Assembly: GCA_005888635.1 (NCBI GenBank)
Contig: VBAW01000019.1
Coordinates: 18,776-82,775 of the forward strand
Reading direction: 5' to 3'
From: Candidatus Bathyarchaeota archaeon
GTDB lineage: Archaea > Thermoproteota > Bathyarchaeia > 40CM-2-53-6
DNA length: 64,000 nt
This document shows positions 2,676 through 55,985 of the stretch, in pieces. The notes under the pieces were generated by a model. The model was not told the DNA's origin and did no database searches. It saw only the letters and a list, made by a program, of their open reading frames with translations. Position 1 is the stretch's first letter, and the number at the start of each line of letters is the position of its first letter. A program made the translations under genes and the position numbers.

Positions 2676-3008
2676 TCAAGACCCACTCTCGTCTAGAACT
2701 AATCCATTGCGGATAGCGTCCCTCACATAGATGCTTCTATGTCTCAACTGTCGAAACTCGTCCACTGTATAACCAAACGCTTCCAACGGAATCTTGTTTG
2801 TCCACGCTTTGTGGAGATAGCTCAATCTCTCAGAGAACGGCATTTTCGAGAAATCGTCGGAAATGATTATGAGGTCAACATCGCTATCCTCTCGCTGCGT
2901 TCCCCTAGCCCAAGACCCGGTTAGTATTGCCTTGTTGACGAAAATGCTTGGACCCAGTTTCTTCACATACCCCTTGACTACTCTCTGGATGCCCCTCTTT
3001 GTTGGCAA
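2676..3008 (-). CDS. Minimal nucleotidyltransferase (MNT-type, TA-associated)
   Basis: GSWARGTQREDSDVDLIIIS matches the hG[GS]...DxD motif of pol-beta superfamily NTases. Confidence 0.7.
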   Translation of the reverse strand: MPTKRGIQRVVKGYVKKLGPSIFVNKAILTGSWARGTQREDSDVDLIIISDDFSKMPFSERLSYLHKAWTNKIPLEAFGYTVDEFRQLRHRSIYVRDAIRNGLVLDESGS

Positions 3009-3166
3009 CGGACGAGTCCTTTCTACAAACTAGGAACGTCTGTGCATACTCCATATGAAGAGTGTCTTCGAGTTTTCCTAGACCGCCTACGGAATTTTTG
3101 CAGCTCTGTATCCACTGTTGACATTTGTAAAACGTCAAATGCAGGCTGACCTTCAGTCAAGGAGTA

Positions 3167-3811
3167 TTGTCTACGCAAGAGGGAGGACGGGCACCGCGAA
3201 GACCTCGACCGAGGCTGGAGACTCTCTCTGACCTGATCTACGGATTGTCGTTGTCGATCGGCGCGATCAGCCTAGTGATAACCAACAGCCAATCGTCGAG
3301 CGCTAGCGATATCAACAGGAACATTCTTGATTTTCTCTTCGTCTTCCTCATCCTGATTACAAGCTGGATAATCTACACGAGCGACATGTCGGTTCTACCG
3401 ATCGAGACCCGTCTCATAACATTCCTCAACGTTGTTCTCCTCATGCTCGTTGCAATCATCCCATACCTCTTTGATCAGGTCGTGTCTACTTTCAATCCAC
3501 TCAGCGTTCAGGAGTATGCGTCGATCCTATTCACAGCCGACTTCGCTGGCTCGCTATTGATATTGGCCATTTTTGCCCACATCATCGCACAGGAAGAAGA
3601 GCATCTCGTCGATGGAGAAATAATGATAAGGTTCCGGAGGATCAGAAACAGGCTAAGTCTCCTGACAGTCATAGTGCTCCTCTCGCTTGCTGCCCCATGG
3701 GACTGGTTCTTCCTTGGAATACACGTCAGACTCCTGGTTTGGTATGTGCCAATAGTTTCGTTCTGGTTGAACAGATTTGAGCAAGCTCCCCGTTCGGATT
3801 ACCAAGACTAA
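3167..3811 (+). CDS. DUF1211 / TMEM175-like membrane protein (putative K+ channel family)
   Basis: The N-terminal RLETLSDLIYGLSLSIGAISLV matches the RxxxFSDGVFAIAITLL signature of DUF1211. Several TM helices follow. Confidence 0.5.
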   Translation: MSTQEGGRAPRRPRPRLETLSDLIYGLSLSIGAISLVITNSQSSSASDINRNILDFLFVFLILITSWIIYTSDMSVLPIETRLITFLNVVLLMLVAIIPYLFDQVVSTFNPLSVQEYASILFTADFAGSLLILAIFAHIIAQEEEHLVDGEIMIRFRRIRNRLSLLTVIVLLSLAAPWDWFFLGIHVRLLVWYVPIVSFWLNRFEQAPRSDYQD

Positions 3812-18044: not shown

Positions 18045-18245
18045 AGCACTCTCTGAGGTTCATTTCTCTGGCAGACCAGACCGCCATGCGGTTCCTAATC
18101 AGCACTTTCGATCTCGTGTCTGAGCAATAGCCGAAAGCTAGCTCAACCCTACAGATGTCGGGTCAGCGGAGCGACTGGCGCGAACGACTACACGCGAACC
18201 CCTCACGGATGGAACAGGAATTAGCAATCAAACTACAAGAAAACC
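18045..18245 (-). repeat. Island repeat copy G (reverse orientation); its ATG plus 22 conserved codons head ORF 18155..18391
   Basis: The reverse complement matches CTTGTAGTTTGATTGC...GTTCCAT(T/C)CGTGAGGGGTT(G/C)GCGTGTAGTCGTTCGCGCCAGTCGCTCCGCTGACCCGACATCTGTAGGGTTGAGC...CACGAGA. Confidence 0.8.
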
Positions 18246-18735
18246 GAATAAACGTACTTGTATCGGACCATCGTTCTGCCTGCTACTCTTTGGTCTGGTC
18301 GCGAGTGGTAGAGAGACCTGGGGACCCTTTTGCCAGCTTGGATTTGGCGGTGCTGGGCTCGGCCCATGTTGTGTCTAGGCTTAGCTGTTGAGGTCGCGTA
18401 ACATCTGATGTTGTTGGTTCTGGTTGGACCCATGTGAGGTTCTTGCGAACTGTTGGCGTGGGTAGTCCTGGTCTCGCGTCGTTGACTCCTTTGTCTGGTG
18501 GAGGTAGTGGTCCTTCTCGGGTCTTGTTTTTTGTCATTCTCTCACCTCGTTCCCGTTTCTCCCAATGACGATCTTCCGGAGAGGGTCTCTTGCTTGGGCT
18601 TGGTTCCTTCATGCCATTGTTGTAGCCAGCAGCGTGTTTCTTCTTCAGTCGGCAGCTGGTCCGGACGGAGAACTGCTAGAAAGGTTATCTCAATCTGTGG
18701 GATCGAGTCTCAAACGCTAGGTCGAGAGTGCACAA

Positions 18736-21504
18736 ATGGACCTCATTTGGTTGGTCCTCGGACTGGTTCTCGCAGTGATCCTAGCTATCGTGGTTCTAGT
18801 TGTTCTTCCATGGTATCGGAAGCACGGCATCGAGCAGGCCAGAGCTTCGTTGAAAGAGGTCCCTTCGATTATCGCTAGAATCGACAATTCCTTGCAGCCC
18901 TACTTGTCCTCGAAGGAGTACCTTCCCGAGCGGGTTGGTAGACCTCTGAGGTCAGAGATCCAGACACTCGCTGAGTTGACCTTGCCGGTTCTCGGGAAAA
19001 GTGTCCGGAGAGCCCATGATGTTGCAATGAGAAAGGATTTCGAGTCGATGACGGCCGCTGCCAATCAGTTGTGTCAAAGGCTTGCGGGGAACAACTACCA
19101 GTATGTCCAGCGAGCGATCTCTGAGCACTCGAAGTTGCTTGTCGATGAGCTGAAGCTCGACGCGGCTCAGCGAGAGGCGACCGTTCGAGACGATGAGCGC
19201 AATCTTGTCGTTGCGGCGGCCGGTTCGGGCAAGACGCGCACGTTAATCGCTAGGGTCCGTTATCTCTTGGAACGTGGCTCCGCTCCAACTAACATTCTGG
19301 CGATAACCTTCACGAACAAAGCGACCGAGGAGATGAAGGACCGCCTCAAACAGATGAGTGTACCAGTCGCGGATCAGGGAAGCGATGGTGTGACTGTCTC
19401 GACACTTCATGCTCTCGGCAAGCGCGAAGTCCAAGCCGCCACTCCAGGACCGCTTAGTATTGCTGACGAGCATTGGACAAACTCCCTTGTCGCTAGCGCG
19501 TTGCGTGATGCCAGGGAAGGTCGAGATCGGCAGCTTTCGAGTTTGTATGTCAATGCGATTCTGAACTTCCATCGTGATCTGGACGAGCGGACCCCAGCTC
19601 TCGGTGCGGACCTTACCTACAGAACTCGTCGTGGAGAACAAGTTCGGTTCATCGGCGAGCGAATCATCGCGGACTTTCTACTCACCCACCAGGTTCCTTA
19701 CAAGTACGAAGCCACAGCCTCATGGGCACAAGTCGGCTCAGGTCGCTCCGCCTATCACCCCGATTTCACACTCCTTGACACTGGAGCTTGCGTCGAATAT
19801 TGGGGGATAGACCGTGGAGGCAATGTGGCCGGGAATTGGTCAACTTCCTCTGCAGATTATGGCAAGGGAATGGCATGGAAAAGAGGAGAGTTCAACCGCA
19901 CTGGCAAGAAGCTCATCGAATTCTACGATTACGAGCGCAGAGAAGGAACTCTGGAGGCATTACTCGAAACACGCTTGACCGGTGCCGGCGTACAATTACG
20001 ACCGATGACACTAGCCGGGTTAGAAAAGATCCTCGGGGATACAAAGTACATCGGCAGCGTGATCGAGAGACAATTGGCAGGATTCATTGAAAATGCTCGT
20101 TCATTCCGAATGTCGACTGACCAGATTCTCCAGCGTCTAATATCGGCAACGCCACGCGTTCATCATTTCGGGAACCTTGGTCTTGCAGTTTTGCAAAGAT
20201 ACAAGAGGGAATTGGCCTCGGAAGGGAGAGTCGATTTCTCGGACATGCTTCACCGGGCCGCTGACATCGTAGAGAAAGGTGCGAGTTCACTCCCAAAGTT
20301 TGATCATGTCCTTGTCGACGAGTTCCAAGACACCTCGACGGCTATGGCCCGCCTTGTGAATGCACTTGTTCGAACAAACCATGCTCATCTCTTCGCCGTG
20401 GGTGATGACTGGCAAGCCATCTACGGTTTTGCAGGCGGAGACGTAGATCATGTTGTCAACTTCGAGTCTCACTTCGGACCCGCCTCACGGACAATGCTCG
20501 ACACAAACTACAGATCCCCGGCCACAATCGTCGAGGCGGGTGCAGCGTTAATTGCTCACAACCCCGGCCAAATACCAAAACAGGTTGTCATCTCTAGCCC
20601 TGAGCGTGGCGAAGCCTTCATTCACGAAGTCCCTGATGACGATTTAGCGATCATAAACAAGGCGATTCAGCTAGTCAACGAGGAACGTAAGCGAGTTGAT
20701 CCCGACGAAATCTTGGTTCTCAGCCGGACCAACCACCTGGTCAAGGGGATAAGCGATGGATGCCAGCAGAATGGGATTCCAGTGGCCTACCCTGATCGCA
20801 ACGTTTCCGGAGTCCGCATACTATCTGCTCATAAGGCGAAAGGCCTAGAAGCGAATGTCGTGGTCATCGCAAACGCTAGCGACCATCTGTTCGGCTTTCC
20901 TTCGAAGATGGAGAACTCGGATGTTCTTGAACCAGTACGGATGAGTGCTGGAAACGCTCCGGCTGAGGAACGACGACTGTTCTACGTAGCAGTCACTAGG
21001 GCTAGGAAGCGGCTACACCTGATCTCTCGACAGGGTCACCCGTCACCTTACATCGCAGAGATCGAAGGAGCTTCTCAACAATCGCAGACTGCCAGCCGGG
21101 GGTCATTTCGTCCAGGCGTTCGTTTCAACGACGCTTTCTACGTTGAACAAGTCTATCGCCTCACTGATCGACAAGCAAAGGCGCGCATTCACCAATGCGG
21201 CCTCTTGACAACACCGAACGGCCGCTTTTCTTTTACGTCATGGCTGCCATTCTATCTTGACCAGGGAAGGACCTATTCGCTGACAGGGGTTCTCTATGAT
21301 CGGCCCTATCAAAACCGGCATCAGGTTACGCTTGACAGGGCGACTCATGTCGAACGACAAGCGATCCAGTCACAAGCCAGCCAACCTATAGGCGTGCGCC
21401 AACTACGTCCACGCCCTCCTCCTCAGTTCCAGCCCCGCTTGATGGTACCAAACAATCCGCTCGTGAAAACATCGGATTCGTTGATCGCGAAGCCTGTTCG
21501 ATGA
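18736..21504 (+). CDS. Membrane-anchored UvrD/PcrA-like SF1 helicase with an internal PD-(D/E)xK nuclease-like insertion
   Basis: An N-terminal TM helix is followed by Walker A AAAGSGKTRT, motif II VLVDEFQDTS, motif III GDDWQAIYGFAGG, motif IV NYRS and motif VI YVAVTRARKRLHL. The insertion between motifs I and II contains ERIIADFLL...YKYE...YHPDFTLLDTGACVEYWG, a Vsr/DUF559-like pattern. Confidence 0.85.
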   Translation: MDLIWLVLGLVLAVILAIVVLVVLPWYRKHGIEQARASLKEVPSIIARIDNSLQPYLSSKEYLPERVGRPLRSEIQTLAELTLPVLGKSVRRAHDVAMRKDFESMTAAANQLCQRLAGNNYQYVQRAISEHSKLLVDELKLDAAQREATVRDDERNLVVAAAGSGKTRTLIARVRYLLERGSAPTNILAITFTNKATEEMKDRLKQMSVPVADQGSDGVTVSTLHALGKREVQAATPGPLSIADEHWTNSLVASALRDAREGRDRQLSSLYVNAILNFHRDLDERTPALGADLTYRTRRGEQVRFIGERIIADFLLTHQVPYKYEATASWAQVGSGRSAYHPDFTLLDTGACVEYWGIDRGGNVAGNWSTSSADYGKGMAWKRGEFNRTGKKLIEFYDYERREGTLEALLETRLTGAGVQLRPMTLAGLEKILGDTKYIGSVIERQLAGFIENARSFRMSTDQILQRLISATPRVHHFGNLGLAVLQRYKRELASEGRVDFSDMLHRAADIVEKGASSLPKFDHVLVDEFQDTSTAMARLVNALVRTNHAHLFAVGDDWQAIYGFAGGDVDHVVNFESHFGPASRTMLDTNYRSPATIVEAGAALIAHNPGQIPKQVVISSPERGEAFIHEVPDDDLAIINKAIQLVNEERKRVDPDEILVLSRTNHLVKGISDGCQQNGIPVAYPDRNVSGVRILSAHKAKGLEANVVVIANASDHLFGFPSKMENSDVLEPVRMSAGNAPAEERRLFYVAVTRARKRLHLISRQGHPSPYIAEIEGASQQSQTASRGSFRPGVRFNDAFYVEQVYRLTDRQAKARIHQCGLLTTPNGRFSFTSWLPFYLDQGRTYSLTGVLYDRPYQNRHQVTLDRATHVERQAIQSQASQPIGVRQLRPRPPPQFQPRLMVPNNPLVKTSDSLIAKPVR

Positions 21505-21534
21505 TCTGATCCGCCCGTGAAGATATGACGTCTA

Positions 21535-21625
21535 GTTGTTCTCTCCAGCCGCTCCACTAACCCGATATCTGTCACTCTCAGCTGTCTTTCGGCTAGTGCA
21601 CAGACACGGGAACATGCCACAGCAG
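21535..21625 (+). repeat. Island repeat copy H (partial, degenerate) directly after the helicase stop
   Basis: CCAGCCGCTCCACTAACCCGATATCTGTCACTCTCAGCTGTCTTTCGGCTAG...CAGACACGGGAAC aligns to the core and downstream part of copies B-F. Confidence 0.55.
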
Positions 21626-25983: not shown

Positions 25984-26190
25984 TTAAGCGGTTTGTGCGA
26001 GCGGGACGATTTTCCGCAGCATCTTGCTCGCCTTGAGAATTTCTATCCCGATCACTTTTCCGTTCTTTCCTAGCTCTAGGTTGATGTCCGGCGCCAGCTC
26101 TATGAAACCCTCCTCTGGACCCTTCGATATTACAATGTAGAGGCTGTCGCTCTCCCGGTCGTACAGCGCCTTTCGCATCTTCTCAGCCAA
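25984..26190 (-). CDS. DUF2283-like small protein (TA-partner family)
   Basis: YDRESDSLYIVISKGPEEGFIELAPDINLELGKNGKVIGIEILKAS fits the DUF2283 pattern. Confidence 0.5.
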   Translation of the reverse strand: MAEKMRKALYDRESDSLYIVISKGPEEGFIELAPDINLELGKNGKVIGIEILKASKMLRKIVPLAQTA

Positions 26191-26291
26191 TTCTGTTCCA
26201 CCTTGCTCCCTTAGCCCTTGACGTTTCCTGCTCTTTGCTTATTGGGTGTATAGTTACTATTTCAATCCCTCCCCTTTCTGATCGTAGGCTA

Positions 26292-26483
26292 TCATGATCT
26301 ACCGCTCCCGCCGCCTGAGCCTGACCAGTTTTTTATGGCTATGAGGTGATCTGTTTCTCTGTCTCGATATCTCCGGTCAGCGTCCTCGAAAATTTTCTTC
26401 GGTAGTTCCGCAGGAAACTTCCTCATCTCCAGTCTAGTCCTAAGATGTCTCGTGTAGGTTATCCTAGTCAGACCCTGCGCCAT
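26292..26483 (-). CDS. DUF4258-like small protein (TA-partner family), upstream of DUF2283
   Basis: 63 aa with ITYTRHLRTRLEMRKFPAELPKKIFEDADR. The gene order DUF4258 then DUF2283 is the usual pairing. Confidence 0.4.
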   Translation of the reverse strand: MAQGLTRITYTRHLRTRLEMRKFPAELPKKIFEDADRRYRDRETDHLIAIKNWSGSGGGSGRS

Positions 26484-26549
26484 CCGTCTCCTTTTCGACC
26501 AAGAACTCCTAGCGCCAGAGGTTAATGAGAGTAAGAGGCGTGTCTTCGC

Positions 26550-26675
26550 CTGTAGTTTGATTGCGAGCTCTTGTCCATCCGTGACGGGTTGGCGTGTAGT
26601 CGTTCGCGCCCGTCGCTCCGCTGACCCGAAATCAGTTACTTTCAGCTGTCTCTCGGCTACCGACCGGTGTTATCT
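26550..26675 (+). repeat. Island repeat copy A
   Basis: CTGTAGTTTGATTGCGAG...GGGTTGGCGTGTAGTCGTTCGCGCCCGTCGCTCCGCTGACCCGAAATC...CAGCTGTCTCTCGGC. Confidence 0.8.
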
Positions 26676-27119
26676 CTCCAGATAGACCGTGTTCTTCGAC
26701 TTGTCGTAAATGAGCCTGTATCTTTCGATAATGTCCCTTCCTAGTAGCGAGGGAAGCTGCAGTACAAGTTCTCTTCCATGACGGTCCATTCTCGCGGTCT
26801 CGTGTTTCGCAACGTGAACCTGGAGTCTCTCTCGGACCGTGCCTCCGGTATCTGTCTTGAAGAGGAGTATTCCGTCCCTGATGATTCGAGTGTCGACGGT
26901 CCCTCCGATCCCGCTGAGCGGCCTCTTTGTCTTGTCGAGCCGGTTCCATTCTATCCCAAGTCTATCACGGTCCCGATCCATAATTGTCGTAACGGAGGCG
27001 CCGGTATCGACTAGGAAAGCAGCTGTTCCTCTCCCCTGTAGAACTCCTGATTCTATCTGGGCGTAGATGGAGGGTGCGGGTGGGACGAAGCTCGGGTCGA
27101 GATAGCATGGGAGCTTCAC
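26670..27119 (-). CDS. Retropepsin-like (retroviral-type) aspartic protease
   Basis: AAFLVDTGASVTTI carries the D-T/S-G active site. The C-terminal LLGRDII matches the retropepsin GRD/N motif. Confidence 0.7.
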   Translation of the reverse strand: MKLPCYLDPSFVPPAPSIYAQIESGVLQGRGTAAFLVDTGASVTTIMDRDRDRLGIEWNRLDKTKRPLSGIGGTVDTRIIRDGILLFKTDTGGTVRERLQVHVAKHETARMDRHGRELVLQLPSLLGRDIIERYRLIYDKSKNTVYLER

Positions 27120-27352
27120 AGTATTAGTTCTCGCTTCTTACGAGTAACGTACTCGACCACGACCCTGTCCCTCGGGTAGCTCTTTCCAACCCTATTCAGA
27201 AGCCTGGACAAGCTACTGTCATGATCGACCACCTTCTTCCCATACACGGCAACATTCTGGTGATCGAACCGACGTGCAAGGCGGGCATAGTTCGTCCTAA
27301 ACCAAGCATGGTTTTCCGTCCAGTCATCGAACGAGGATCCGTTCTTATCCAT
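27116..27352 (-). CDS. Small protein translationally coupled (ATGA) upstream of the retropepsin-like protease
   Basis: 78-aa ORF whose stop overlaps the protease start. Confidence 0.4.
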   Translation of the reverse strand: MDKNGSSFDDWTENHAWFRTNYARLARRFDHQNVAVYGKKVVDHDSSLSRLLNRVGKSYPRDRVVVEYVTRKKRELIL

Positions 27353-27460
27353 CCATAATCCTCTCTACCCTTCTATCCCAGTCGACTGTCAAGAAAAACA
27401 TTCTCTTCTCCCAACCCGTTCAGCTCGGAGTCGATTATCCATCAGACCCGAATATCCCTA

Positions 27461-27799
27461 TCAAAGGTTTTCAAGTAGGTCTTGGTATAACTGGTCTCTT
27501 TTCTTGTCCGAGTAGCTGTCGTATTGTAGTTCTAAGATTCTGTATCCTCTCTTCCGTAAGAGCAAGCGTAGTTCTTCGTTTTTCGCCATCTGCGCTGTTC
27601 CATGATGGACCTGGCCGTCGACAAACACGAGTAACGGTCTAGATTCTAGCGGGAAGTAGAGGTCGGCTGTGGTTACAAGTATCTCTGCCTGTGTCAGGTA
27701 TCTTATCTGGTCGTCTTGTAGTCTGATTGTTATTTCCTGTTCCATTCGTGAAGGGTTGGCGTATACGCGTTCGCGCCAGTCGCTCCGCTGACCCGACAT
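27461..27799 (-). CDS. DUF559 / Vsr-like PD-(D/E)xK endonuclease-domain protein; its 5' end and upstream region are the island repeat
   Basis: 112 aa. The N-terminal MSGQRSDWRERVYANPSRMEQEITIRL matches the R...T.AE..LW helix of DUF559. LLVFVDGQVHH...D..R...L...GYRILEL matches the LIIELDGGQH...GxxVLRF core. Confidence 0.6.
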   Translation of the reverse strand: MSGQRSDWRERVYANPSRMEQEITIRLQDDQIRYLTQAEILVTTADLYFPLESRPLLVFVDGQVHHGTAQMAKNEELRLLLRKRGYRILELQYDSYSDKKRDQLYQDLLENL

Positions 27800-27925
27800 C
27801 TGTCGCTATCAGCTGTCTCTCGGCCCATTTCTCAGACACGAGAACGAAACAGGTGAGAAAAAGGCCGAACGTTTAGCCGCCAACTTACTTTTGCTAGACT
27901 CTCCAGACCAAGAGGACTCGGCAAT
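27733..27925 (+). repeat. Island repeat copy B; it contains the start of DUF559 gene 27461..27799 on the opposite strand
   Basis: Core CGTTCGCGCCAGTCGCTCCGCTGACCCGACATCTG plus downstream CAGCTGTCTCTCGGCCCATTTCTCAGACACGAGAACGAAAC...CTCTCCAGACCAAGAG. Confidence 0.85.
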
Positions 27926-28439: not shown

Positions 28440-28682
28440 ATGCGGCGCTCGATCTTTGGGCCGGAACAGATGGCGCGTAGAGCCGATTCGATACAACTGC
28501 CTAAGGAGCTCGTTGCGGACCTGCTAGAGTCATCTCTAAGGTTCCAGGAGGTCGCTGAATCCTTAGAGGTTCAGCTGGACAAGAAGACCGTCAAGAGGCT
28601 CAAGATTGGAGGCAAGGAGCTAAAGAAGCGCCAGTACAAGGTAGCTTCCAGCCGAGAAGATATCGACCGGATTCTCAGTTGA
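28440..28682 (+). CDS. Putative antitoxin (partner of RelE/ParE toxin)
   Basis: 80-aa ORF whose stop overlaps the toxin start (ATGA). Confidence 0.5.
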   Translation: MRRSIFGPEQMARRADSIQLPKELVADLLESSLRFQEVAESLEVQLDKKTVKRLKIGGKELKKRQYKVASSREDIDRILS

Positions 28683-28933
28683 GATACGAGGCAGTCTTCC
28701 TAAACACTTTTCTGAAACAGTTCAAGAAGCTCCCTGGCAACGTCAAGCAACGAGTCAAGCAGAGGATCCAAGAGCTCGCGACGAACCCCTACATGGGTCT
28801 GAGGCTCAAGGGAGGCCTTGAGGGCTTCTGGAAAGACCGTGTAGGCGCGTATAGGATCCTGTACAAGATTGACAGTGGAGCGGGAAGAATAATCTTCTAT
28901 GATGTCGATCTCAGAAAGCGAGTCTATGATTGA
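28679..28933 (+). CDS. RelE/ParE family toxin
   Basis: 84 aa. KQFKKLPGNVKQRVKQRIQELATNP...YRILYKIDSGAGRIIFYDVDLRKRVY is the typical RelE/ParE fold signature. Confidence 0.75.
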   Translation: MRYEAVFLNTFLKQFKKLPGNVKQRVKQRIQELATNPYMGLRLKGGLEGFWKDRVGAYRILYKIDSGAGRIIFYDVDLRKRVYD

Positions 28934-28967
28934 AGAACCAAGATGCGAGGGAAATTATTCGTTTCTG

Positions 28968-29160
28968 TAGTTAGATGCCTGGTTCTTGTTCCATTCGTGA
29001 GGGGTTGACGTTTAGGTGTTCGTGCCAGTGGGTCCGCTGACCCGACATCTGTAGGGTTGAGCGGTCTTTTGATTATTGCTTAGACACGAGAACGAAATTG
29101 CGCTCGTCAATCCATTTCGTTCATCATCAGCCAGCTCTCGCGACTACTAGCAACGTGTCA
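28968..29160 (+). repeat. Island repeat copy C
   Basis: CTTGTTCCATTCGTGAGGGGTTGACGTTTAGGTGTTCGTGCCAGTGGGTCCGCTGACCCGACATCTGTAGGGTTGAGC...CACGAGAACGAAA...CCATTTCGTTCATCATCAGCCAGCTCTC. Confidence 0.85.
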
Positions 29161-32494: not shown

Positions 32495-32597
32495 CAGACC
32501 CAGTCAAGGGAGCACTACGATCAACTCTTCAAGATCCGCAAGGAAGCGTGAGCCCGGAACGATAGGATAGTCACACGACTAGTCGCTATTTGGTCGT

Positions 32598-32880
32598 CTT
32601 GTAGTTTGATTGCGAGTTCTTGTTCCATTCGCGAGGGATTGGCGTGTAGGCGTTCGCGCCAGTCGCTCCGCTGACCCGACATCTCTCACTTTCAGCTGTC
32701 TCTCGGCCATTGCTCATACACGAGAACGAAACTGCTTTCGCCGATCCATTTCTTTCATTGTCGGCCAGCTCTCCAGACCAAGAGCAACTACAGGACAATC
32801 TGAGTCTCATGGAGGCTGCAAGACCTGCAGTGCAGAACTGGTCCGTAGTGGAAGAGGTCGTCAGCCTCCTCCTAAACATC
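32598..32880 (+). repeat. Island repeat copy D (long form, ~280 bp)
   Basis: TCTTGTAGTTTGATTGCGAG...CGTTCGCGCCAGTCGCTCCGCTGACCCGACATCT...CACGAGAACGAAACTG...GCCAGCTCTCCAGACCAAGAGCAAC...GGAGGCTGCAAGACCTGCAGTG. It is about 85 percent identical to copy E. Confidence 0.85.
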
Positions 32881-33094: not shown

Positions 33095-33655
33095 GTGGAC
33101 CGAACACTCGACTATCCCGGGCTGAGAATACTCAACATATTCTTCCAGGACCCGTACAGGGAAGTCCATCTCCGCCAAGCCGCCGCCCAGGCCCAGGTAA
33201 GCCCCAGCACAGCCAAACGATTCCTCGACGAATACACTCGACTCGGACTCTTGACCGAGACCCAGAAGGCCAACCTCCACCTCTTCAAAGCCAACCTCGA
33301 CAAGGCGAGTTTCCGACTCTGGAAGACCAGCCTCTTCCTTCTGAAGAATGAGAACCATTTGAGACATCTCGCGAGCCTTTACCCCGACTCGAGCCTCACG
33401 CTCTACGGAAGCTGCGCAACCGGGACTGACGCACCGGGAAGCGACCTGGACCTACTCCTCATCACTAGACTAGATCAGGACCCTTCGCCAAGGCAGCTCG
33501 ACGAGCTTTCAAAAAAAACCCAGAGAACCGCCCAGCTGTTGAAGTACACTCCTGAAGAATGGGAGAAGAAAGCCAGTGAAGACAAGCCGTTCTACGAGCG
33601 AGTGATAATCGACGGCATCGCTATAAGCGGACCCCTGCCGGTCGTCGTCAATTGA
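33095..33655 (+). CDS. MNT-type nucleotidyltransferase (toxin-antitoxin module component)
   Basis: LYGSCATGTDAPGSDLDLLLI is the NTase hGS...DxD motif. The gene is translationally coupled to the HEPN gene. Confidence 0.8.
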   Translation: MDRTLDYPGLRILNIFFQDPYREVHLRQAAAQAQVSPSTAKRFLDEYTRLGLLTETQKANLHLFKANLDKASFRLWKTSLFLLKNENHLRHLASLYPDSSLTLYGSCATGTDAPGSDLDLLLITRLDQDPSPRQLDELSKKTQRTAQLLKYTPEEWEKKASEDKPFYERVIIDGIAISGPLPVVVN

Positions 33656-34095
33656 ACCTCGAAGAGTGCTTCCAGCGGCGACTTCTGAGGAGAGACAGAC
33701 CGGACACGGCGAAGGCTGAAAGATCGCTTCAAGTCTCAGCAGCAAAACTCGAACAAGCCGAGAGATCATACAGCCACCAGCTCTACGACGCATGTCTGGT
33801 CCTAGCATACACTTCGATGTTCCACGCCGCCCGAGCAGTACTCTTCAGAGACGGAATAATCGAGAAGAGCCACGTCTGCCTAGCCGAGTATTTACGACAA
33901 GAATACTCAAAGAAAGGTTTGATCAGCGAAGGATACATGAACAGTCTAGACAGAATGCGCACCGACAGGCACGAAGCCATCTACGGATTGGAGACGTCAG
34001 TCACAAAAACCCTGGCCGACCATGCGATCAACCAGTGCAGAGAATTCATCGGCGCCGCGAAGAAGCTAATCTCCAATGAGAGGACCCTAGCTTGA
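33652..34095 (+). CDS. HEPN domain protein (partner of MNT)
   Basis: The alpha-helical HEPN fold has an R-x5-H motif (RMRTDRHEAIY). Its stop abuts repeat copy E. Confidence 0.8.
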   Translation: MNLEECFQRRLLRRDRPDTAKAERSLQVSAAKLEQAERSYSHQLYDACLVLAYTSMFHAARAVLFRDGIIEKSHVCLAEYLRQEYSKKGLISEGYMNSLDRMRTDRHEAIYGLETSVTKTLADHAINQCREFIGAAKKLISNERTLA

Positions 34096-34370
34096 TTGCT
34101 ACTTGTTCCGTTCGTGAGGGGATCGGCGTGTAGTCGTTCGCGCCAGTCGCTCCGCCGACCCGACATCTGCCGGTTTCAGCTGTCTTCCGGCCATTCCTCG
34201 GACACGAGAACGAAACTGGCTTGGATGATCCAGTCGGTTCATTGTCAGCCAGCTCTCCAGACTAAGAGCAACAATGCTTCATCCGGGGAGCCATGGAGGC
34301 TGTAAGACCCGCAGTGAAGTACTGGTCCGTGATGGAAAGGGTCATCAGCCTCCTCCCTAGCTCTTGAAGA
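34093..34370 (+). repeat. Island repeat copy E (long form), followed by a 55-bp fragment duplicating the 3' end of the MNT gene
   Basis: This copy has the same architecture as copy D. After it, GTGATAATCGAAGGTACCGCTATAAGTGGACGCCTC (34385-34440) matches GTGATAATCGACGGCATCGCTATAAGCGGACCCCTG at 33601-33636. Confidence 0.85.
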
Positions 34371-40377: not shown

Positions 40378-40659
40378 CGAGACACCCGCTACCGCACTAA
40401 TGTATTCTTCATCCGAGCATATAAGTGCTCATTACAAACCTGTTCTAGCCCCCAGAGACCAGGACCGGGCAAAGGCCTCTGACATCTTCCCGGACCCAGC
40501 AGAAGCATGCACAGCGGACGTTTTTCCCCGCCGCTACGCGCTTCGAGAATTCTGCAAGCCTACGGGCGGACATTCTATTCCCAAATTGCCGCTTCGGTAC
40601 CAGCCTAAGTCATTGCAAACATCTGGACTTGCGTGAGATGTCTAATTTGATCATGTTCT

Positions 40660-40795
40660 AAGCTGTTTGCTAGGTCTTGTTCCATTCGTCAGGGGTTGGC
40701 GAGTAACTGTTCGCGCCAGTCGCTCCGCTGACCCGACATCTGTAGGGTTGAGCTATGGTTCAGCTATTGCTCAGAAACGAGAACGAAAACTGGTG
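40660..40795 (+). repeat. Island repeat copy F
   Basis: CTTGTTCCATTCGTCAGGGGTTGGCGAGTAACTGTTCGCGCCAGTCGCTCCGCTGACCCGACATCTGTAGGGTTGAGCTATGG...CAGAAACGAGAACGAAAAC. Confidence 0.85.
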
Positions 40796-41021
40796 TCAAG
40801 GAGCATAAGACATATCCACGCAGAGTTCTACGAGGTGAATAGTGTTCGTGATGTTCGGGTTGTTAACAATCTGACACACGGAACACTAAGCTAGGCGTCT
40901 TCTCTCGTTCATCCTCAACAAACTCTCCCGACTAAGGACAAAGGCCGCCATTAACGAGACCCTGAGGGCTTCCAGACCAGAAGAACGCTCTTGTGCAAGA
41001 CCTGACTCGCGCGTCCCCTGA

Positions 41022-49286: not shown

Positions 49287-51605
49287 CTATCCTAATCGGC
49301 CATGTTTGTCCACTAGTTTCTGAAGAGAATTCGCAACCTTCTCCGCCTCCGGTCTACGCCCAGGATCCTTCGCCAGCATGTCCTTCAAGACCGGAATTAT
49401 TGCTGAGAATTTCGGATCAATCTTCGACACGTCTGGACTGAAGGAATCCCACGCTGACTCGAGATCATTCGCGGCCTTGTTCGAGGAAGGATTGTTTGAC
49501 AGATTATTCATCGCTTCGATCAACGTGTTGGAGTGGACCGGGGTCCGTGTCAGCATTGTGTACAGCGCCGCTCCCAATGCGTAGACATCCATGCTCGGAT
49601 CCGCCTCGTCGCCGAGAACCTGCTCACCCGGCGCATACTCCGATGTAAACTGAACCACCTTTCCACCACTCTTCACCGCACAGCCTAGGTCAGCCAGCTT
49701 GGGCACGAGCGACCCGGCGACCATCTGTTCTAGCATATCCTGTCCAGTCAATGGCGGCTTCGATGTGAACAGAACATTCTGCGGTTTGACATCAAGATGA
49801 ACGAATCCGGCTTTGTGGACCATGTCTAGTGCCTGAGCCATCATCTGGCCCAGCATCACAACAATCCCACCCCACTTCTCCGAATAGTACAAAGGCTCAT
49901 ACGCTGGATCCTCGATCAGCTTCTTCGCCGTCCCACCCTTCATGAAGTCCATAACGATCGCTGGTGGGCTGCGATAGTAGAGTGCGATATTCCCCTTGAC
50001 AATCTCCTGAACGTTCAATCGATCCACCAGCACTCCTCGGATCTGGACCACGTACTTGGATTGACCTGACAGCTCCAACAATCGAGTCGCCTCGGACATC
50101 GTCTCGTTCAACGTCGTCACCCCGGTAGTCGGCTCGTTCACGCCTCTCACCCTACTGGTCGTTTTCAGGATCGGAATCTTCAGCGCCATCTCAGTCGCCC
50201 CCTGGCCAAAAGTTGCACGGAGAACATAGCCAGTCGCACCCGTAGCAACGTGTTCTACAACTTTGTAGCCATGGATCTCCTGGTTCACCCAGACTCTCGG
50301 ATCCCACTTGTCGAGGCTCGGCAGGCCAGTCTTCGGCAATGGAGCCGAAGGCGGAGGAGGAAGCGAGATTATTGGCGGGGGACTAGGACGTTGAACGGGC
50401 GGTGGTGGAGCTGGACGTGAGACGGGAGGAGGATGCGATACTTGAGGAGTGGGACGCGCAGGTGGCGGGGGAGGTGGATGTGTGACTGGTTGGGGCTGCA
50501 CGCTGAACGAGAAGGACTCCTTGGAGGTTTGATGCGTCTTACTCGTTGCAATAATGTGCGCGTTGTAGTTACCAGGTTTTCCTGGAGCGTAAGCCGCATT
50601 GTATCTTCCAACGGAGACATGTGACAGTCTCAACTGATCACGTTTTCCCGCGGGCGTTTGTATCGATGCGTCGATTGTGGCCATGTCTCGCGGCTTGCCC
50701 TCAGACTCGGTTGCTATCTTGATCGTCTCAATATGACCTATCCTGATGGAGTGGTCTCCTGAGACCCTGATCCGTGGAGGGGCGACGGAAGGACTAGAGA
50801 TCTTCGCAGGTCCCGCGGATATTTTCGGAGGCGCAGGTGCGCCGAGCATTCTGACCGCCAGTCCAGAAGCGACTATCCCGGCGATTGCCAAGAGTGGCAG
50901 GAATCCCAGGGAGGAGAAGAAGATGTACGCGAGTTCTGGACTAGGAGATGTGATGTAGAGATAGCCGATTACGGCGTTGTAGGAGAAGAAGGCTGGCGGC
51001 ATTACTGCCATTGAGAATCTCTTGGTCTGCCAGAATTTGTCTAAGAAGAATAGAAGACCCATCTGGAGAGAGTTCGCGGCAAGGCCTAGGCCAATGAAGA
51101 ACGAAGCGGAGAATAGCGAGGATCCGATCAGGTTCGAGCCCGTGCTTTTCGAGGCTCCAACGACAAGCCCGATACCTGTTGCAAGGGTCGCAAGAACCAT
51201 CTGCTTAGGGACCCGATAACGTTCCTTCTTCGAGAAGAGGATCGTCGACAGGAAGACCCCTGCTGCGGGTGGCAGGGCAACGAAGAGGAAAGTGAATTCT
51301 CCCGCTGATGAGATCTGGGATGAGAAGGCTGAGTTCTGGAGAATGTAGGACAGGGTCAGGAGTGTAGCTGCGAAACCGAGAATGGATCTGAGGAATCCAG
51401 TTTTCAGATCGAGAGCCGTCAGAAGCCCGAAGCTAACAACAGTGATCGCATAGGTCAGAGTATCCCCCTGAAACCCGAGTGCGAATGCGAAGCCGAGGGG
51501 AAGTGAGAGGACTGTGACGAGTGATGGCGCGAAGAAGCCTGTCGGGGCTGGAAGACCGTGATGTGGCTTAGCTAGGACGGACGCCTGGGGCTGTTTTCCT
51601 CCCAC
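49287..51605 (-). CDS. Membrane-anchored Hanks-type Ser/Thr protein kinase
   Basis: An N-terminal polytopic region and a Pro-rich linker precede a C-terminal kinase domain. The domain has the catalytic loop HLDVKPQN, DLG (DFG-like), APE-like SEYAPGE and the Lys motif ALKIP. Confidence 0.85.
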   Translation of the reverse strand: MGGKQPQASVLAKPHHGLPAPTGFFAPSLVTVLSLPLGFAFALGFQGDTLTYAITVVSFGLLTALDLKTGFLRSILGFAATLLTLSYILQNSAFSSQISSAGEFTFLFVALPPAAGVFLSTILFSKKERYRVPKQMVLATLATGIGLVVGASKSTGSNLIGSSLFSASFFIGLGLAANSLQMGLLFFLDKFWQTKRFSMAVMPPAFFSYNAVIGYLYITSPSPELAYIFFSSLGFLPLLAIAGIVASGLAVRMLGAPAPPKISAGPAKISSPSVAPPRIRVSGDHSIRIGHIETIKIATESEGKPRDMATIDASIQTPAGKRDQLRLSHVSVGRYNAAYAPGKPGNYNAHIIATSKTHQTSKESFSFSVQPQPVTHPPPPPPARPTPQVSHPPPVSRPAPPPPVQRPSPPPIISLPPPPSAPLPKTGLPSLDKWDPRVWVNQEIHGYKVVEHVATGATGYVLRATFGQGATEMALKIPILKTTSRVRGVNEPTTGVTTLNETMSEATRLLELSGQSKYVVQIRGVLVDRLNVQEIVKGNIALYYRSPPAIVMDFMKGGTAKKLIEDPAYEPLYYSEKWGGIVVMLGQMMAQALDMVHKAGFVHLDVKPQNVLFTSKPPLTGQDMLEQMVAGSLVPKLADLGCAVKSGGKVVQFTSEYAPGEQVLGDEADPSMDVYALGAALYTMLTRTPVHSNTLIEAMNNLSNNPSSNKAANDLESAWDSFSPDVSKIDPKFSAIIPVLKDMLAKDPGRRPEAEKVANSLQKLVDKHGRLG

Positions 51606-51756
51606 CGCAATCCACCATTAATCATCCGGCAATAGTTGTCAGAGAATCCTCTCTACCGTCTCTCGACGTGAGGGGAGAACCGCGACCCAAAACGAAAATG
51701 TCTCTAGTGACGGTGACCCTCGGTACTGTCAGAGATTAAACTGTGTCCATCAACCA

Positions 51757-52689
51757 ATGACCAGTTGTTCCATGAAACTCCGTCATTCCAAGCCCGCCAC
51801 CGATGAGGACGAAATAGAGACTGGAACCAGTACTGAGGCACCCACGTCGCAGACAGCTGCGACCGGGAACTGGAAGTGCCCATCGTGCGGCGCCGAAAAC
51901 GAGGATTACCGAACATTCTGCGACGGCTGCGGAGACAAGAGACCCGGAGCCAAAGTCGCATCCAAAGGCATCGACATGGCCAGCCTACTCGGCTCCTCAG
52001 AATCATCCGACAACACAACAGCCAAGGACGACACATCCCCCAAAGACGACAGATCGTCCAGCTGGGAAGACTCTCCCAAGAAAGAGAAGAGCAAGAAGAG
52101 TAAGAAGAACAAGAAAGCCGACGAAGAAGAGGCCGAACCGCTCAAAGCAGAACCTCTCGAACCGGAAAAGATCGAACCCCCAGAGAGCATTACGCCCAGC
52201 GACGATTTCGGATCCCAGAAGCCCTCATTCGTGCTCACTGGGCCATCGGCAGAGCCTGAACCTGATGATAGCCAGGCAGCAGCACCATCACCGCCGACCT
52301 TCCCGTCCAGCTTCCAGTCGAGCTTCCAGCAGACATCCCAGCCAAGCTCAGCCCCAGCCGGATCGCACTATTACTTGGTCTTCGTCAACACACCAGCGTC
52401 ATCCCTCATCAAGACCAAGGTCAGCATCGACTTCGACGACTTCCCCACCATAACCATCGGGAGAAGCCCCGAGAATGTGGTGGTAATTCCCGACCAGGAA
52501 GTGTCACGGAAGCACGCCTCGCTCAGCTTCAGCGGCAGCAAGCTCATGCTGAAGGACCTGGGAAGCCTCAACGGCACATTCCTCTACGATGGCAAAGAGT
52601 TCCAGCGAGTCAGCGATAGTGTCGAAGTCAAGCCGAATAACGTTTTGAAGTTCGGCACAGGCACTATCGTGAAGCTCGTGAGTGAATGA
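51757..52689 (+). CDS. Zinc-ribbon plus FHA domain protein (ArnA-like)
   Basis: N-terminal WKCPSCGAENEDYRTFCDGCG, an acidic Ser-rich linker, and a C-terminal FHA domain (ITIGRSPENVVVIPDQEVSRKHASLSF...LKDLGSLNGTFL). Confidence 0.8.
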   Translation: MTSCSMKLRHSKPATDEDEIETGTSTEAPTSQTAATGNWKCPSCGAENEDYRTFCDGCGDKRPGAKVASKGIDMASLLGSSESSDNTTAKDDTSPKDDRSSSWEDSPKKEKSKKSKKNKKADEEEAEPLKAEPLEPEKIEPPESITPSDDFGSQKPSFVLTGPSAEPEPDDSQAAAPSPPTFPSSFQSSFQQTSQPSSAPAGSHYYLVFVNTPASSLIKTKVSIDFDDFPTITIGRSPENVVVIPDQEVSRKHASLSFSGSKLMLKDLGSLNGTFLYDGKEFQRVSDSVEVKPNNVLKFGTGTIVKLVSE

Positions 52690-53471
52690 TTGAAGCCGCA
52701 GAGGCGCTCCGGGTGATCGGTGAAGCCCTGGCAGAGCTCGCTGGACCCCTACTCAACCCGAGATATGAGGACAGAGTGATCTTCGTTGGAGACACGCACG
52801 GGGCAATAGACGTGACACAGACCGTCATTGACAAATTCTTTGACGACGCAGATCTCATCGTCTTCCTAGGCGACTATGTTGACAGGGGAAACAAGAGCTT
52901 AGAGAATCTCGGGCTAATCGCTTCAACACTCCTAGAAGACCCTCACCGAACAATAATGCTCCGAGGGAATCACGAAAGCCCGCTGACAAATCCCTACTAC
53001 GGATTCACTGACGAGGTGACGGAGAAACTTGGCGAGGGTAGCTACGAGAAATTCAAGGAGTTTTTCCAGGCAATGCCCTATGCGGTTGTTGTAAACGATT
53101 ACCTTTGTCTTCATGGTGGAATTGCGAAAGGCATGGAGCACGTGTCGGAGATCGCCTCGCTTCCCTGGCCTGACTTGAACCCTGATGATCCGATAGCCTT
53201 CCAGCTTTTGTGGAACGATCCGAGAGACGTGATTGACGAGTTCGTTCCTAGCGTCCGCGGTAAAGGAGCCTTCTACTACGGCACCGAAGCGACCAAGACA
53301 TTCTTGGAAAACAACTCGCTCAAAGGAATCATCCGTGGACACGAGGTCGTTGATGGTTTCAGAGAAGATATGGGTGGCCGAGTCATGACCGTCTTCTCCA
53401 GCAGATACCACGGCGGCAAAGCGGGAGTCCTAGTACTCGACAAGGGCAAGATGGAGAGAATAACAGTATGA
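52686..53471 (+). CDS. PPP-family Ser/Thr protein phosphatase (calcineurin-like metallophosphoesterase)
   Basis: GDTHG, GDYVDRG and LRGNHE motifs are present. The gene has ATGA overlaps with both neighbours. Confidence 0.85.
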   Translation: MIEAAEALRVIGEALAELAGPLLNPRYEDRVIFVGDTHGAIDVTQTVIDKFFDDADLIVFLGDYVDRGNKSLENLGLIASTLLEDPHRTIMLRGNHESPLTNPYYGFTDEVTEKLGEGSYEKFKEFFQAMPYAVVVNDYLCLHGGIAKGMEHVSEIASLPWPDLNPDDPIAFQLLWNDPRDVIDEFVPSVRGKGAFYYGTEATKTFLENNSLKGIIRGHEVVDGFREDMGGRVMTVFSSRYHGGKAGVLVLDKGKMERITV

Positions 53472-54601
53472 CCCTATCTGTAAGAACCGAGCTAAGCCAC
53501 TCCTACTCGTACGACTCGAAGGTTGATGCCGTCTTCAAGATCACGCTCGTCGCCGAGAAACAGGCCGAGGCGAAAGGATTCCAGCACATCATCGTCCTCG
53601 ACACCAGCCACTCAATGGCGGGAAAGAAGCTCGAACTCGCCAAGAAGGGAGCCCAGGAATACTGGAGCAGAATCCCTACTGGAAACAAGGTCTCATTCAT
53701 CACTTTCTCAGACTCAGTCCACACTTATCCCGACACCAACCTTTCCACCACCCTCCCGGGAATCAAAGCAACAGGCATGACCGCGCTCTACTCCGCACTC
53801 ACGACCGCGTTCGACATGGCCGCAAAAAGCGGCGCTTCTGGCTGGATTCTACTCCTTACAGATGGGCATCCAACTGACGTGACGAAACCTGAACCCTACT
53901 CGGCGTTGAAGACTCCACAGGGTTTCAAGATGATCGAGTTCGGAATTGGAGAGGACTATCGCGAAGACATTCTCAAAGCCCTAGCAGATGCTTCTGGAGG
54001 AGTCCTCTACCACGTCACCGACGCCGACAAGCTACCCGTCGTTATGCAAGAGAACGCTGTAAGCCAAGTTGCGGGACGAAACATCACGGTAGACTTTGAA
54101 CCCTCGGATGTTCGGATCCTCAACTATCCCGGCCCCCCAGTCAAGATCAATGCTCTAGAAAATATTGCAAAAATCTGGGGCCAAGTAACCATGCCAGAGG
54201 GCTTCAAGGGTCAGCTACTAAACGTCCAAGTCTCCTACGGCGACGCGGTCGACGGGTCCAAGCAAACCATCAACTCATCTGCAAACATTCGACCGGCAAA
54301 AAGTGACGAAGAGTACACTCAGGGAATACGCAACAGTCTCATGGCAGAATTCGCCTACTACCAGGGACTGGAAGAGTACTACAAGCAACTCTCCGCCGGA
54401 AAGTTCAAGGAGGCTACGAAGACAATGACCCAATTATCGTCTAACGCGGGACAAACCCAGCGCGCGGACATCATCGAGTCCACGAAACGACTCTCCGAGC
54501 AGCATGAGCAGACGCTGCGACTTGGAGGAGGCACCGAGAACACGAATCGACTATTGAAAGAAGCAGCAAGCGAATCCACCAAGAGAACCCGCGGCAAGTA
54601 A
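53468..54601 (+). CDS. von Willebrand factor A domain protein (ArnB-like)
   Basis: MIDAS DTSHSM (DxSxS) and a downstream Thr/Asp are present, followed by a C-terminal helical region. Confidence 0.8.
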   Translation: MTLSVRTELSHSYSYDSKVDAVFKITLVAEKQAEAKGFQHIIVLDTSHSMAGKKLELAKKGAQEYWSRIPTGNKVSFITFSDSVHTYPDTNLSTTLPGIKATGMTALYSALTTAFDMAAKSGASGWILLLTDGHPTDVTKPEPYSALKTPQGFKMIEFGIGEDYREDILKALADASGGVLYHVTDADKLPVVMQENAVSQVAGRNITVDFEPSDVRILNYPGPPVKINALENIAKIWGQVTMPEGFKGQLLNVQVSYGDAVDGSKQTINSSANIRPAKSDEEYTQGIRNSLMAEFAYYQGLEEYYKQLSAGKFKEATKTMTQLSSNAGQTQRADIIESTKRLSEQHEQTLRLGGGTENTNRLLKEAASESTKRTRGK

Positions 54602-55031: not shown

Positions 55032-55985
55032 TTAGAGCGGGACCTCGATCATCAGTTTCTCCAACAATTCCTTGTAGCGGTTGCGTATAGTGACCTCGGT
55101 CACATTAGCGATCTCTGCAATCTCTCGCTGAGTCTTGCGCTCATTCGTCAAGACCGTTGCAATATACGTAGACGCGGCCGCAATACCCGCCGGACCCCGA
55201 CCACTAGTCAGTTTCATCTGTCGAGCAATCTCTAGAATGCGGATAGCGATCCCTTCCGCTTTTCCAGAAATCACCAGGCGATTGGAGAAACGGGCCGCAT
55301 AGCTCCGGTTAGCCGAGGGAGGCACGAACATTCCGAGCTCGCGAAGCATGAATCTGTAGCTCCGGCCGATATCCTTCTTGTTCAACGTTGACACAGACGC
55401 AATCTCGTCCAGCGTCCTCGGGACACCGCACTGGCGACAGGACATGTAGATGGCCGCCGCGGTCACGTTGTGAATTGACCGGCCCCGAATCAGTCTCTTC
55501 TTGATCGCTCGCCGGTAGATGACGGAGGCGGTCTCCAGAATATTCTTCGGCAATGTCAGAGCTGCCGACAGTTTACTCAGTTCCGAGAGTGCAACTGCAA
55601 GATTCCTCTCGGTCGCGTCGGAGACTCGGACCCGGCGCTGCCATTTCCGCAGCTTGTACAACTCGATCCGCTGGTCAGCGCTAACGCTCTTCGTCCCAGA
55701 AGGGCGATCCCTCCAGTCAATGATGGTGGACAGACCCTTATCATGAATGGTGAACGTCATAGGAGCCCCTGTCCGGGCTCGCTTAGCCCGTTGCTCATCA
55801 TCGAAAGCGCGCCACTCGGGCCTCGAATCAGCAATCTTGTCAGTGACCACGAAACCGCAGGTCATGCAGACAACCTCGGCTGTATCATAGTCGCGGATGA
55901 GCTTCGAACCTTTACACTCAGGACACAGTCGAGCAGGTCTAGGACCCGTCGGGATTCTCGGTACCTGTTCGAGTGTCTCAGTCAA
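55032..55985 (-). CDS. tfb: Transcription initiation factor IIB (TFB)
   Basis: N-terminal zinc ribbon CPECKGS...CMTCGFVV, B-reader/linker, and two cyclin-fold repeats. 317 aa. Confidence 0.95.
   Translation of the reverse strand: MTETLEQVPRIPTGPRPARLCPECKGSKLIRDYDTAEVVCMTCGFVVTDKIADSRPEWRAFDDEQRAKRARTGAPMTFTIHDKGLSTIIDWRDRPSGTKSVSADQRIELYKLRKWQRRVRVSDATERNLAVALSELSKLSAALTLPKNILETASVIYRRAIKKRLIRGRSIHNVTAAAIYMSCRQCGVPRTLDEIASVSTLNKKDIGRSYRFMLRELGMFVPPSANRSYAARFSNRLVISGKAEGIAIRILEIARQMKLTSGRGPAGIAAASTYIATVLTNERKTQREIAEIANVTEVTIRNRYKELLEKLMIEVPL

Follow-up and report, generated by a model that had tools for sequence, protein, structure and literature searches.

What does a free-standing protease of the retroviral type do in an archaeon, and why is it encoded hard against a second, smaller gene? 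These questions are raised by a two-gene locus in a 64,000-nucleotide stretch of DNA (hereafter the window; positions 18,776 to 82,775 of contig VBAW01000019.1) from a Candidatus Bathyarchaeota archaeon, in which a gene for a 78-residue protein of the DUF5678 family (the partner) precedes a gene for a 149-residue retropepsin-like aspartic protease. An exact look-up returned the two products as TMI64286.1 (E6H12_03135) and TMI64287.1 (E6H12_03140) of a Candidatus Bathyarchaeota soil metagenome-assembled genome (MAG), both annotated 'hypothetical protein', and several database relatives of each protein are named at the level of fold or domain only. These identities, together with TFB and ArnB-like genes in the window, bear out the archaeal host given in a preliminary description of the locus. 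We found here that the two genes very probably form a functional unit, which recurs in both archaea and bacteria. Our favoured reading, to which we give a probability of about 0.5, is that the DUF5678 protein is the inhibitor or antitoxin of a homodimeric retropepsin effector, that its C-terminal tail serves as a product mimic, and that the pair would act as a module resembling toxin-antitoxin (TA) or abortive-infection systems.

The hallmarks of a retropepsin, already noticed in the preliminary description, can be read directly from the protease sequence. It contains AAFLVDTGASVTT (D38-T39-G40), SGIGGT (G70-G73) and PSLLGRDII (G127-R128-D129), the last of which corresponds to the GRD/N motif of retroviral enzymes, and a second hallmark stretch of the same open reading frame (ORF) reads PSLLGRDIIERY. 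Profile searches and structure prediction alike support the retropepsin fold, which the preliminary description had named as one of its two checks. Among Pfam families the protein matches Asp_protease_2 (30.6 bits, cut-off 24.3), gag-asp_proteas (30.2 bits, cut-off 28.2) and RVP (23.0 bits, cut-off 20.7), while a profile built from 21 homologues finds the protease of feline immunodeficiency virus (FIV; E 2e-6) and ApRick of Rickettsia (E 5e-6) in the PDB. In the FIV match the DTG, flap and LLGRD segments all align, with the flap set against GIGGG or GVGGG. The AlphaFold2 model has a pLDDT (predicted local distance difference test) score of 94.5, and its best Foldseek match in the PDB is APRc (5c9f_A, E 2.2e-5), followed by the proteases of FIV, Rous sarcoma virus, equine infectious anaemia virus and human immunodeficiency virus (HIV); all of the top 40 matches are retropepsins or Ddi1 RVP domains. 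DTG, GxGG and PSLLGRD are invariant in the alignment of 21 homologues. In the wider set of 77 paired proteases described below, all three motifs are intact in 69, and D[TS]G is present in every one, continuing with A or S in 76. Single-DTG retropepsins work as dimers, and because each chain here carries one DTG, activity would require a homodimer. Neither a signal peptide nor an N-terminal hydrophobic segment was found in the protease, and because the latter is absent the protein is presumably cytoplasmic.

Named families do not readily accommodate this enzyme. Against NCBIfam, TIGR02281 (clan_AA_DTGA) gave 24.2 bits, below its cut-off of 57.95, and no other NCBIfam model matched; TIGR03698, which we take to be the AF_0612 family and presume to be in the library, gave no match at E ≤1e-1. 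Because the protease falls below the TIGR02281 cut-off and has no other NCBIfam match, we place it in a subfamily of its own, as yet without a name, whose marks are PSLLGRD and the DUF5678 partner.

Intact protease genes of this subfamily are almost never found without the partner. We collected 80 protease loci, one genome per species, through the intact C-terminal motif of the protease; a hidden Markov model (HMM) was then built from the partners, iterated once and run on the 7,196 stop-to-stop ORFs of these loci. It matched 78 ORFs, and in 77 cases the matched ORF immediately precedes a protease ORF encoded on the same strand. In locus L021 the remaining match likewise lies upstream of a protease; it was overlooked by the coordinate rule. 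A DUF5678 gene stands directly upstream at 77 of the 80 loci, and three have no partner match. Co-occurrence outside the window, which the preliminary description had singled out as a check on the pair, is thus extensive, and the 80 loci span about 15 archaeal and bacterial lineages. The pair is found in Bathyarchaeota, Brockarchaeota, Baldrarchaeota, Thaumarchaeota, Methanoperedens and Aenigmarchaeota and, among bacteria, in Dehalococcoidia, other Chloroflexota, Cloacimonadota, Planctomycetota, Hydrogenedentota, Zixibacteria, TA06, Gemmatimonadales, Spirochaetia, Pseudomonadales and Rhodobacter. Look-ups of the neighbourhoods of distant protease homologues gave the same picture, with a small DUF5678 or DUF5678-like ORF directly upstream in Bathyarchaeia, Thaumarchaeota, Planctomycetes and Chloroflexota. 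Free-standing retropepsins had been described as uncommon in prokaryotes; this is contradicted both by our genome scan and by the existence of the free-standing families COG3577 and COG5550 (PMC2642776).

The two genes are also closely spaced. In the window the start and stop codons overlap by four nucleotides, although the overlap is GTGA, with the protease starting at GTG, and not ATGA as had been reported; this arrangement implies translational coupling of partner and protease. Among 77 non-redundant pairs the 4-nt overlap occurs in 36, and most of the others are spaced by -22 to +23 nt. The genes around the pair are not shared. In the neighbourhood look-ups the flanking genes were unrelated from locus to locus, with the pair lying between gyrA and rplU in one bacterium, and no third gene is conserved beside it: the 150 genes adjoining the pair in the 80 loci fall into 95 Pfam families. 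These neighbours are mostly metabolic or housekeeping genes and partly resemble defence or mobile-element genes (nSTAND3, Uma2, MmeI methyltransferase, IstB). Two MAGs (JAJDWF01 and DAOULH01) carry two copies of the pair each. No relatives of the pair were found among 2.9 million viral contigs (IMG/VR). Because the distribution is patchy and crosses domains, and because the flanks are unrelated, the pair appears to be a self-contained two-gene operon that moves horizontally. Two Dehalococcoidia chromosomes (L070 and L071) carry tandem retropepsin paralogues at 1812-2412 and 2808-3372, where the upstream partner match is marginal (E 0.005).

The partner scores 32.2 bits against Pfam DUF5678 (cut-off 23.2), a family for which we found no literature, and its residues 25-72 span the whole 49-position model. 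At 50% identity the partner family numbers 3,060 representatives at E ≤1e-3 and 385 at E ≤1e-10. The AlphaFold2 model of the window protein (pLDDT 89) runs through two helices, then a beta-hairpin, a further helix and a strand, after which residues 70-78 form an unstructured tail, with no secondary structure past residue 69 and a mean pLDDT of 70 over the last 8 residues. No ribbon-helix-helix (RHH), helix-turn-helix (HTH), AbrB or Phd-type DNA-binding domain or fold was recognised in the partner. Its sole strongly conserved linear feature is the free hydrophobic C-terminus. Among the 77 non-redundant partners, 73 end in L or V, and the last three residues follow the pattern [LMWV][IVL][LV], with endings that include ELIL, KVIL, PLIL, PLVV, PMVV and VWIL; an alignment of 47 homologues has L78 in every sequence and K72 and L76 in nearly every one. 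Few parts of the protein are as well conserved as the tail, although no structure is predicted for it, and high conservation of a disordered terminus is the signature of a docking motif. Selection on the tail acts at the level of the protein. The motif does not arise as a by-product of start-codon overlap or a ribosome-binding site, because synonymous codons vary (all six leucine and all three isoleucine codons are in use across the 77 pairs) and because the 34 pairs without gene overlap keep it equally well. Retropepsins favour a hydrophobic residue at P1 and a beta-branched one at P2, as in the HIV-1 cleavage site RKIL/FLDG, and the tail, ending in a free carboxylate, resembles the P3-P1 side of such a site.

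DUF5678 domains also occur in tandem two- and three-domain proteins, mostly without the hydrophobic C-terminal tripeptide (P0291, P0292, P0295, P0296, P0325, P0352 and P0359), and a 57-residue solo DUF5678 gene is present in locus L103 (2185-2358, minus strand). The existence of these tandem and solo proteins means that Pfam DUF5678 is broader than the subfamily linked to the protease and, because the tandem proteins mostly lack the tail, the tail is probably specific to that subfamily.

The two genes are not lost at the same rate. In a partner-anchored scan of metagenomes, with an alignment of Bathyarchaeota-type partners as the query, 80 partner hits were obtained, of which 62 have a protease match directly downstream, 15 have none and 3 lie at contig ends. 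About 11 of the 62 protease matches (8 loci) are frameshifted or truncated, and 6 of the 15 partners that have no protease match retain an intact ELIL or ELVL tail. Inspection with tblastn revealed full-length but frameshifted protease genes (L118, L136/L137/L139, L149 and L158), a gene with an internal deletion (L114, a locus also labelled L100) and remnants comprising the first 7-18 protease codons (L130, L131 and L133). These decayed proteases sit beside intact partner genes on Bathyarchaeota metagenome contigs and represent independent events. In L100 a Peptidase_C39_2 gene downstream of the partner was considered as a swap of protease class; this was rejected, since a 48-residue remnant of the retropepsin N-terminus (2780-2926) lies between the two. 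The reverse situation, an intact-motif protease without a partner, is the rarity seen in the 80-locus set. Decay of the effector with persistence of the partner appears to be an asymmetry of the TA kind, and it suggests that the protease is dispensable or costly and is tolerated only together with its partner.

Our favoured reading may be set out as follows. The downstream gene would supply a soluble, homodimeric protease of retropepsin type as the effector, and the upstream, coupled gene a dedicated partner, in which a small alpha/beta DUF5678 domain bears a flexible hydrophobic tail with a free carboxylate (...RELIL-COOH). The partner would bind the protease and hold it inactive, its tail filling the S3-S1 side of the substrate cleft in the manner of a bound cleavage product, with a hydrophobic P1 and a beta-branched P2. 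Unrestrained, the protease would be harmful to the cell, and the pair could act as a module of the type II TA or abortive-infection kind, in which the protease is the effector and DUF5678 serves as its antitoxin or inhibitor. We infer the binding of the two proteins, inhibition as opposed to activation, the placement of the tail in the active site, the toxicity of the protease and a trigger for its release. That the partner acts negatively on the protease we regard as evenly balanced, and we suggest more tentatively that the tail sits in the active-site cleft. The idea of a TA-like inhibitor/protease pair was put forward in the preliminary description, and in our judgement it is the best supported of the readings considered, because the conserved C-terminal tail and the asymmetric gene decay take it beyond mere adjacency.

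Several observations count against this reading or temper the support for it. When tail positions were compared with protease columns by mutual information, cleft positions were not enriched among the top columns, and this comparison is confounded by phylogeny. By eye, arginine or lysine stands five residues past the catalytic aspartate, a position we take to be equivalent to HIV D30, in 13 of 21 pairs with an acidic residue at tail position -4 and in 2 of 52 otherwise, but this charge match is likewise confounded by phylogeny, and the window pair, with E at -4 and V at the protease position, is an exception to it. The comparison of decay is not fully symmetrical, given that the protease anchor demanded an intact C-terminal motif, and some of the protease frameshifts may be assembly errors. 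Finally, many copies of the pair lie among housekeeping genes, as in the gyrA/rplU case, and outside defence islands.

A less probable but serious possibility is that DUF5678 works in the opposite sense, as an obligate cofactor, adaptor, chaperone or substrate in a system of regulated proteolysis with no TA logic. The tail might then complete a beta-sheet at the dimer interface, or the partner might bring targets to the protease, in the manner of ClpS with ClpAP or of the ubiquitin-like domain in Ddi1. Near-obligate co-occurrence and translational coupling would suit activation no less than inhibition, a role as an interface strand could account for the conservation of the tail, and neither the lack of a DNA-binding fold nor the many housekeeping neighbourhoods would be surprising. 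Recurrent, independent decay of the protease beside an intact partner, however, is unexpected if the partner merely serves the protease. The tail also has the composition of a retropepsin P3-P1 product, and no conserved third gene offers itself as a substrate. A biological role in anti-phage defence would be compatible with the inhibitor mechanism: infection would free or activate the protease, which would cleave host or phage proteins and so abort the infection. This role is suggested by PDC-M08, the closest system flagged so far, a two-gene PADLOC phage-defence candidate (cassette CAS_00054, 381 occurrences in RefSeq) that was put forward because it is embedded in BREX, DISARM and type I restriction-modification systems ('guilt-by-embedding'; Payne et al., bioRxiv 10.1101/2024.01.29.577857), and whose B component is, like the window protease, a retropepsin-like protein, of about 127 residues. 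All 21 protease homologues tested match the PDC-M08B HMMs (best E 1.9e-9), as does the window protein (E 2.8e-4), which points to a distant relationship between the two protease families; the window locus is rich in TA genes, and some neighbours of the pair elsewhere have a defence- or mobile-element-like character. Even so, the M08B matches are weak (18.9 bits for the window protein) and the partners do not correspond to M08A, which was matched by 1 of 47 partners at E 0.005, by none of four bacterial partners and not by the window partner. PDC-M08 is itself only a candidate, most neighbours are not defence genes and viral contigs yielded no relatives, and we consider it unlikely that the pair is an anti-phage module related to PDC-M08.

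Two further explanations concern the origin of the locus. The preliminary description had placed the pair in a cassette array and on that ground had taken it to be apparently mobile; in an integron-type version of this view, a site-specific recombinase would move the pair as a cassette by acting on flanking repeats of the attC kind. The repeats themselves are real: eight intergenic copies, each 130-250 bp long, lie in the window from 18.1 to 40.9 kb, all but one in the same orientation and each directly 3' of a plus-strand gene, with a 32-mer core that has 7 matches against 0 expected by chance, and the copies bound short groups of genes that include TA pairs. The pair does lie between two of them, as described, but the interval also holds an unrelated ORF. 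We rejected the attC-like hairpin, since as single-stranded DNA the repeats fold no better than shuffled sequence (z-scores of -0.95 to +1.5 for both strands of three copies), and their consensus fold is weak, with 1 compensatory pair. A scan of 48 window ORFs, which take in nearly all those of 100 residues or more, turned up no integrase, tyrosine recombinase or other recombinase domain. Same-population soil contigs (L014-L019) are about 100% identical to the window across 11.6 kb, with no gain or loss of cassettes, and the repeat, which occurs only in these same-population contigs, is absent from the other 172 loci with the pair. A cassette of integron type is thus very unlikely, and the repeats give no evidence for mobility of the pair; they are conserved in sequence and not in structure, and may be a regulatory element, a recombination site of an unfamiliar kind or a non-coding RNA. 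It is harder still to credit that the locus is a relic of a retroelement or virus, a fragment of gag-pro. The retroviral-type fold and the upstream ORF in the -1 frame give it a superficial likeness to a gag/pro junction, but no gene for a reverse transcriptase, integrase or capsid is nearby, relatives are missing from the viral contigs, the two genes form a stable unit in about 15 prokaryotic lineages and the nearest structure is the bacterial APRc.

Table 1. Positions of the gene pair, its motifs, the repeats and neighbouring TA-type pairs in the window.
Feature	Position	Strand	Remarks
Partner gene, 78-aa DUF5678 protein	27352..27116	minus	ATG at 27352, stop TGA 27118-27116
Retropepsin-like aspartic protease gene, 149 aa	27119..26670	minus	GTG start at 27119, stop 26672-26670
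GTGA start/stop overlap, 4 nt	27116..27119	minus	reads ...ATA CTG TGA / GTG AAG CTC...
Partner C-terminal tail, residues 70-78, TRKKRELIL	27119..27145	minus	ends L-I-L, free carboxylate
Catalytic D38-T39-G40 of protease	27000..27008	minus	invariant in 21-homologue alignment
Flap-like motif G70-I71-G72-G73 of protease	26901..26912	minus	G70, G72 and G73 invariant in 21-homologue alignment
G127-R128-D129 in PSLLGRD motif of protease	26733..26741	minus	invariant in 21-homologue alignment
Repeat copy directly 3' of protease gene	26537..26677	plus	overlaps stop-codon region; context, non-hairpin-forming
Repeat copy upstream of unrelated ORF 27461-27799	27704..27844	plus	context only
Repeat copy	18106-18251	minus	
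Repeat copies	21507-21613, 28953-29154, 32587-32872, 34084-34356, 40644-40897	plus	with the three copies above make eight
DUF2283 + 63-aa ORF (TA-type pair)	25984-26483	minus	
80-aa ORF + ParE toxin (TA-type pair)	28440-28933	plus	
MNT nucleotidyltransferase + HEPN (TA-type pair)	33095-34095	plus	

The surroundings of the pair in the window have some features of their own. A perfect 10-bp palindrome, CAGTCGACTG, lies at 27379-27388, 27 nt upstream of the partner ATG and downstream of a T-rich stretch (27391-27400). By our own estimate about 0.1 such palindromes would be expected by chance in the spacer, and it could be an operator. The ORF that shares the repeat-bounded interval with the pair lies on the minus strand and has 112 residues, or 94 (27461-27745) with the start at Met19 that most gene calls prefer; it resembles Vsr weakly (E 0.01) and is not found alongside the pair at other loci. 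The three TA-type pairs listed in Table 1 lie within 8 kb of the pair, each ending at or just before a repeat copy, and on a complete Bathyarchaeota chromosome the pair is found between a ParE/RHH pair and a DUF3368/UPF0175 pair. Further away, at 49287-54601 and 55032-55985, a cluster encoding a Ser/Thr kinase, an FHA protein, a metallophosphatase and a vWA/ArnB_C protein stands beside a TFB gene and resembles the archaellum regulatory network. Rfam and tRNA scans of the window found nothing.

Among characterised enzymes the protease is closest to APRc (ApRick) of Rickettsia conorii (PDB 5c9b, 5c9d and 5c9f) and to the retroviral proteases, with which it has in common the fold, the DTG, the glycine-rich flap and the GRD, at a sequence identity of about 20%. 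The setting differs. APRc is reportedly the soluble domain of a membrane-anchored, autoprocessing protein. The window protease, by contrast, is a free 149-residue protein, predicted to be cytoplasmic, that does not come from a polyprotein and has a partner gene of its own upstream. As a free-standing enzyme it resembles COG3577/TIGR02281 and COG5550/AF_0612, which are free-standing, single-domain members of clan AA of about 120-150 residues and are largely uncharacterised.

For the partner, the closest parallel is with HIV-1. According to a passage of PMC8794111 that cites Paulus 1999 and Louis 1998, the transframe peptide p6* is encoded just ahead of the viral protease, and the C-terminal tetrapeptide of p6* holds back activation of the enzyme. 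The two cases are alike in that a polypeptide is encoded immediately upstream of a retropepsin and that its C-terminal residues are the proposed restraint. They differ in that p6* forms one covalent chain with the protease until autoprocessing sets it free, whereas the DUF5678 partner is a separate folded protein whose free C-terminus is encoded in the genome. The pair also shares much with type II TA systems such as ParDE and MNT-HEPN: the operon is small and consists of two genes, of which that for the putative antitoxin leads, stop and start codons overlap, the spread across domains is patchy, the flanks are unrelated, some genomes have more than one copy, and the effector decays while the partner persists. 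In the partner, however, none of the RHH, HTH, AbrB or Phd-type domains was recognised, and our full-text literature searches returned neither a description of the pair nor any TA system with an aspartic protease as toxin. The architecture, whether of a TA system or of a regulated protease, is known; it is for the effector class and the proposed inhibitor design that we found no description. The stronger claim that the pair founds a class of TA or abortive-infection modules, with an aspartic protease as effector and a stand-alone inhibitor that inserts its free C-terminus as a permanent product mimic, is one that we advance tentatively and consider somewhat doubtful.

Free-standing homologues of retropepsins are widespread in prokaryotes and their function is mostly obscure. 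The data presented here show that one large subfamily of them travels near-obligately with a specific small partner, and the pair provides a concrete hypothesis for how such enzymes are regulated. If that hypothesis is true, a new enzymatic class would be added to the effectors of TA and defence systems, Pfam DUF5678 would gain a function, and a natural protein scaffold that inhibits retropepsins would be at hand. The pair would then be a prokaryotic, two-polypeptide counterpart of the regulation of retroviral protease by p6*, and it could bear on how that regulation evolved.

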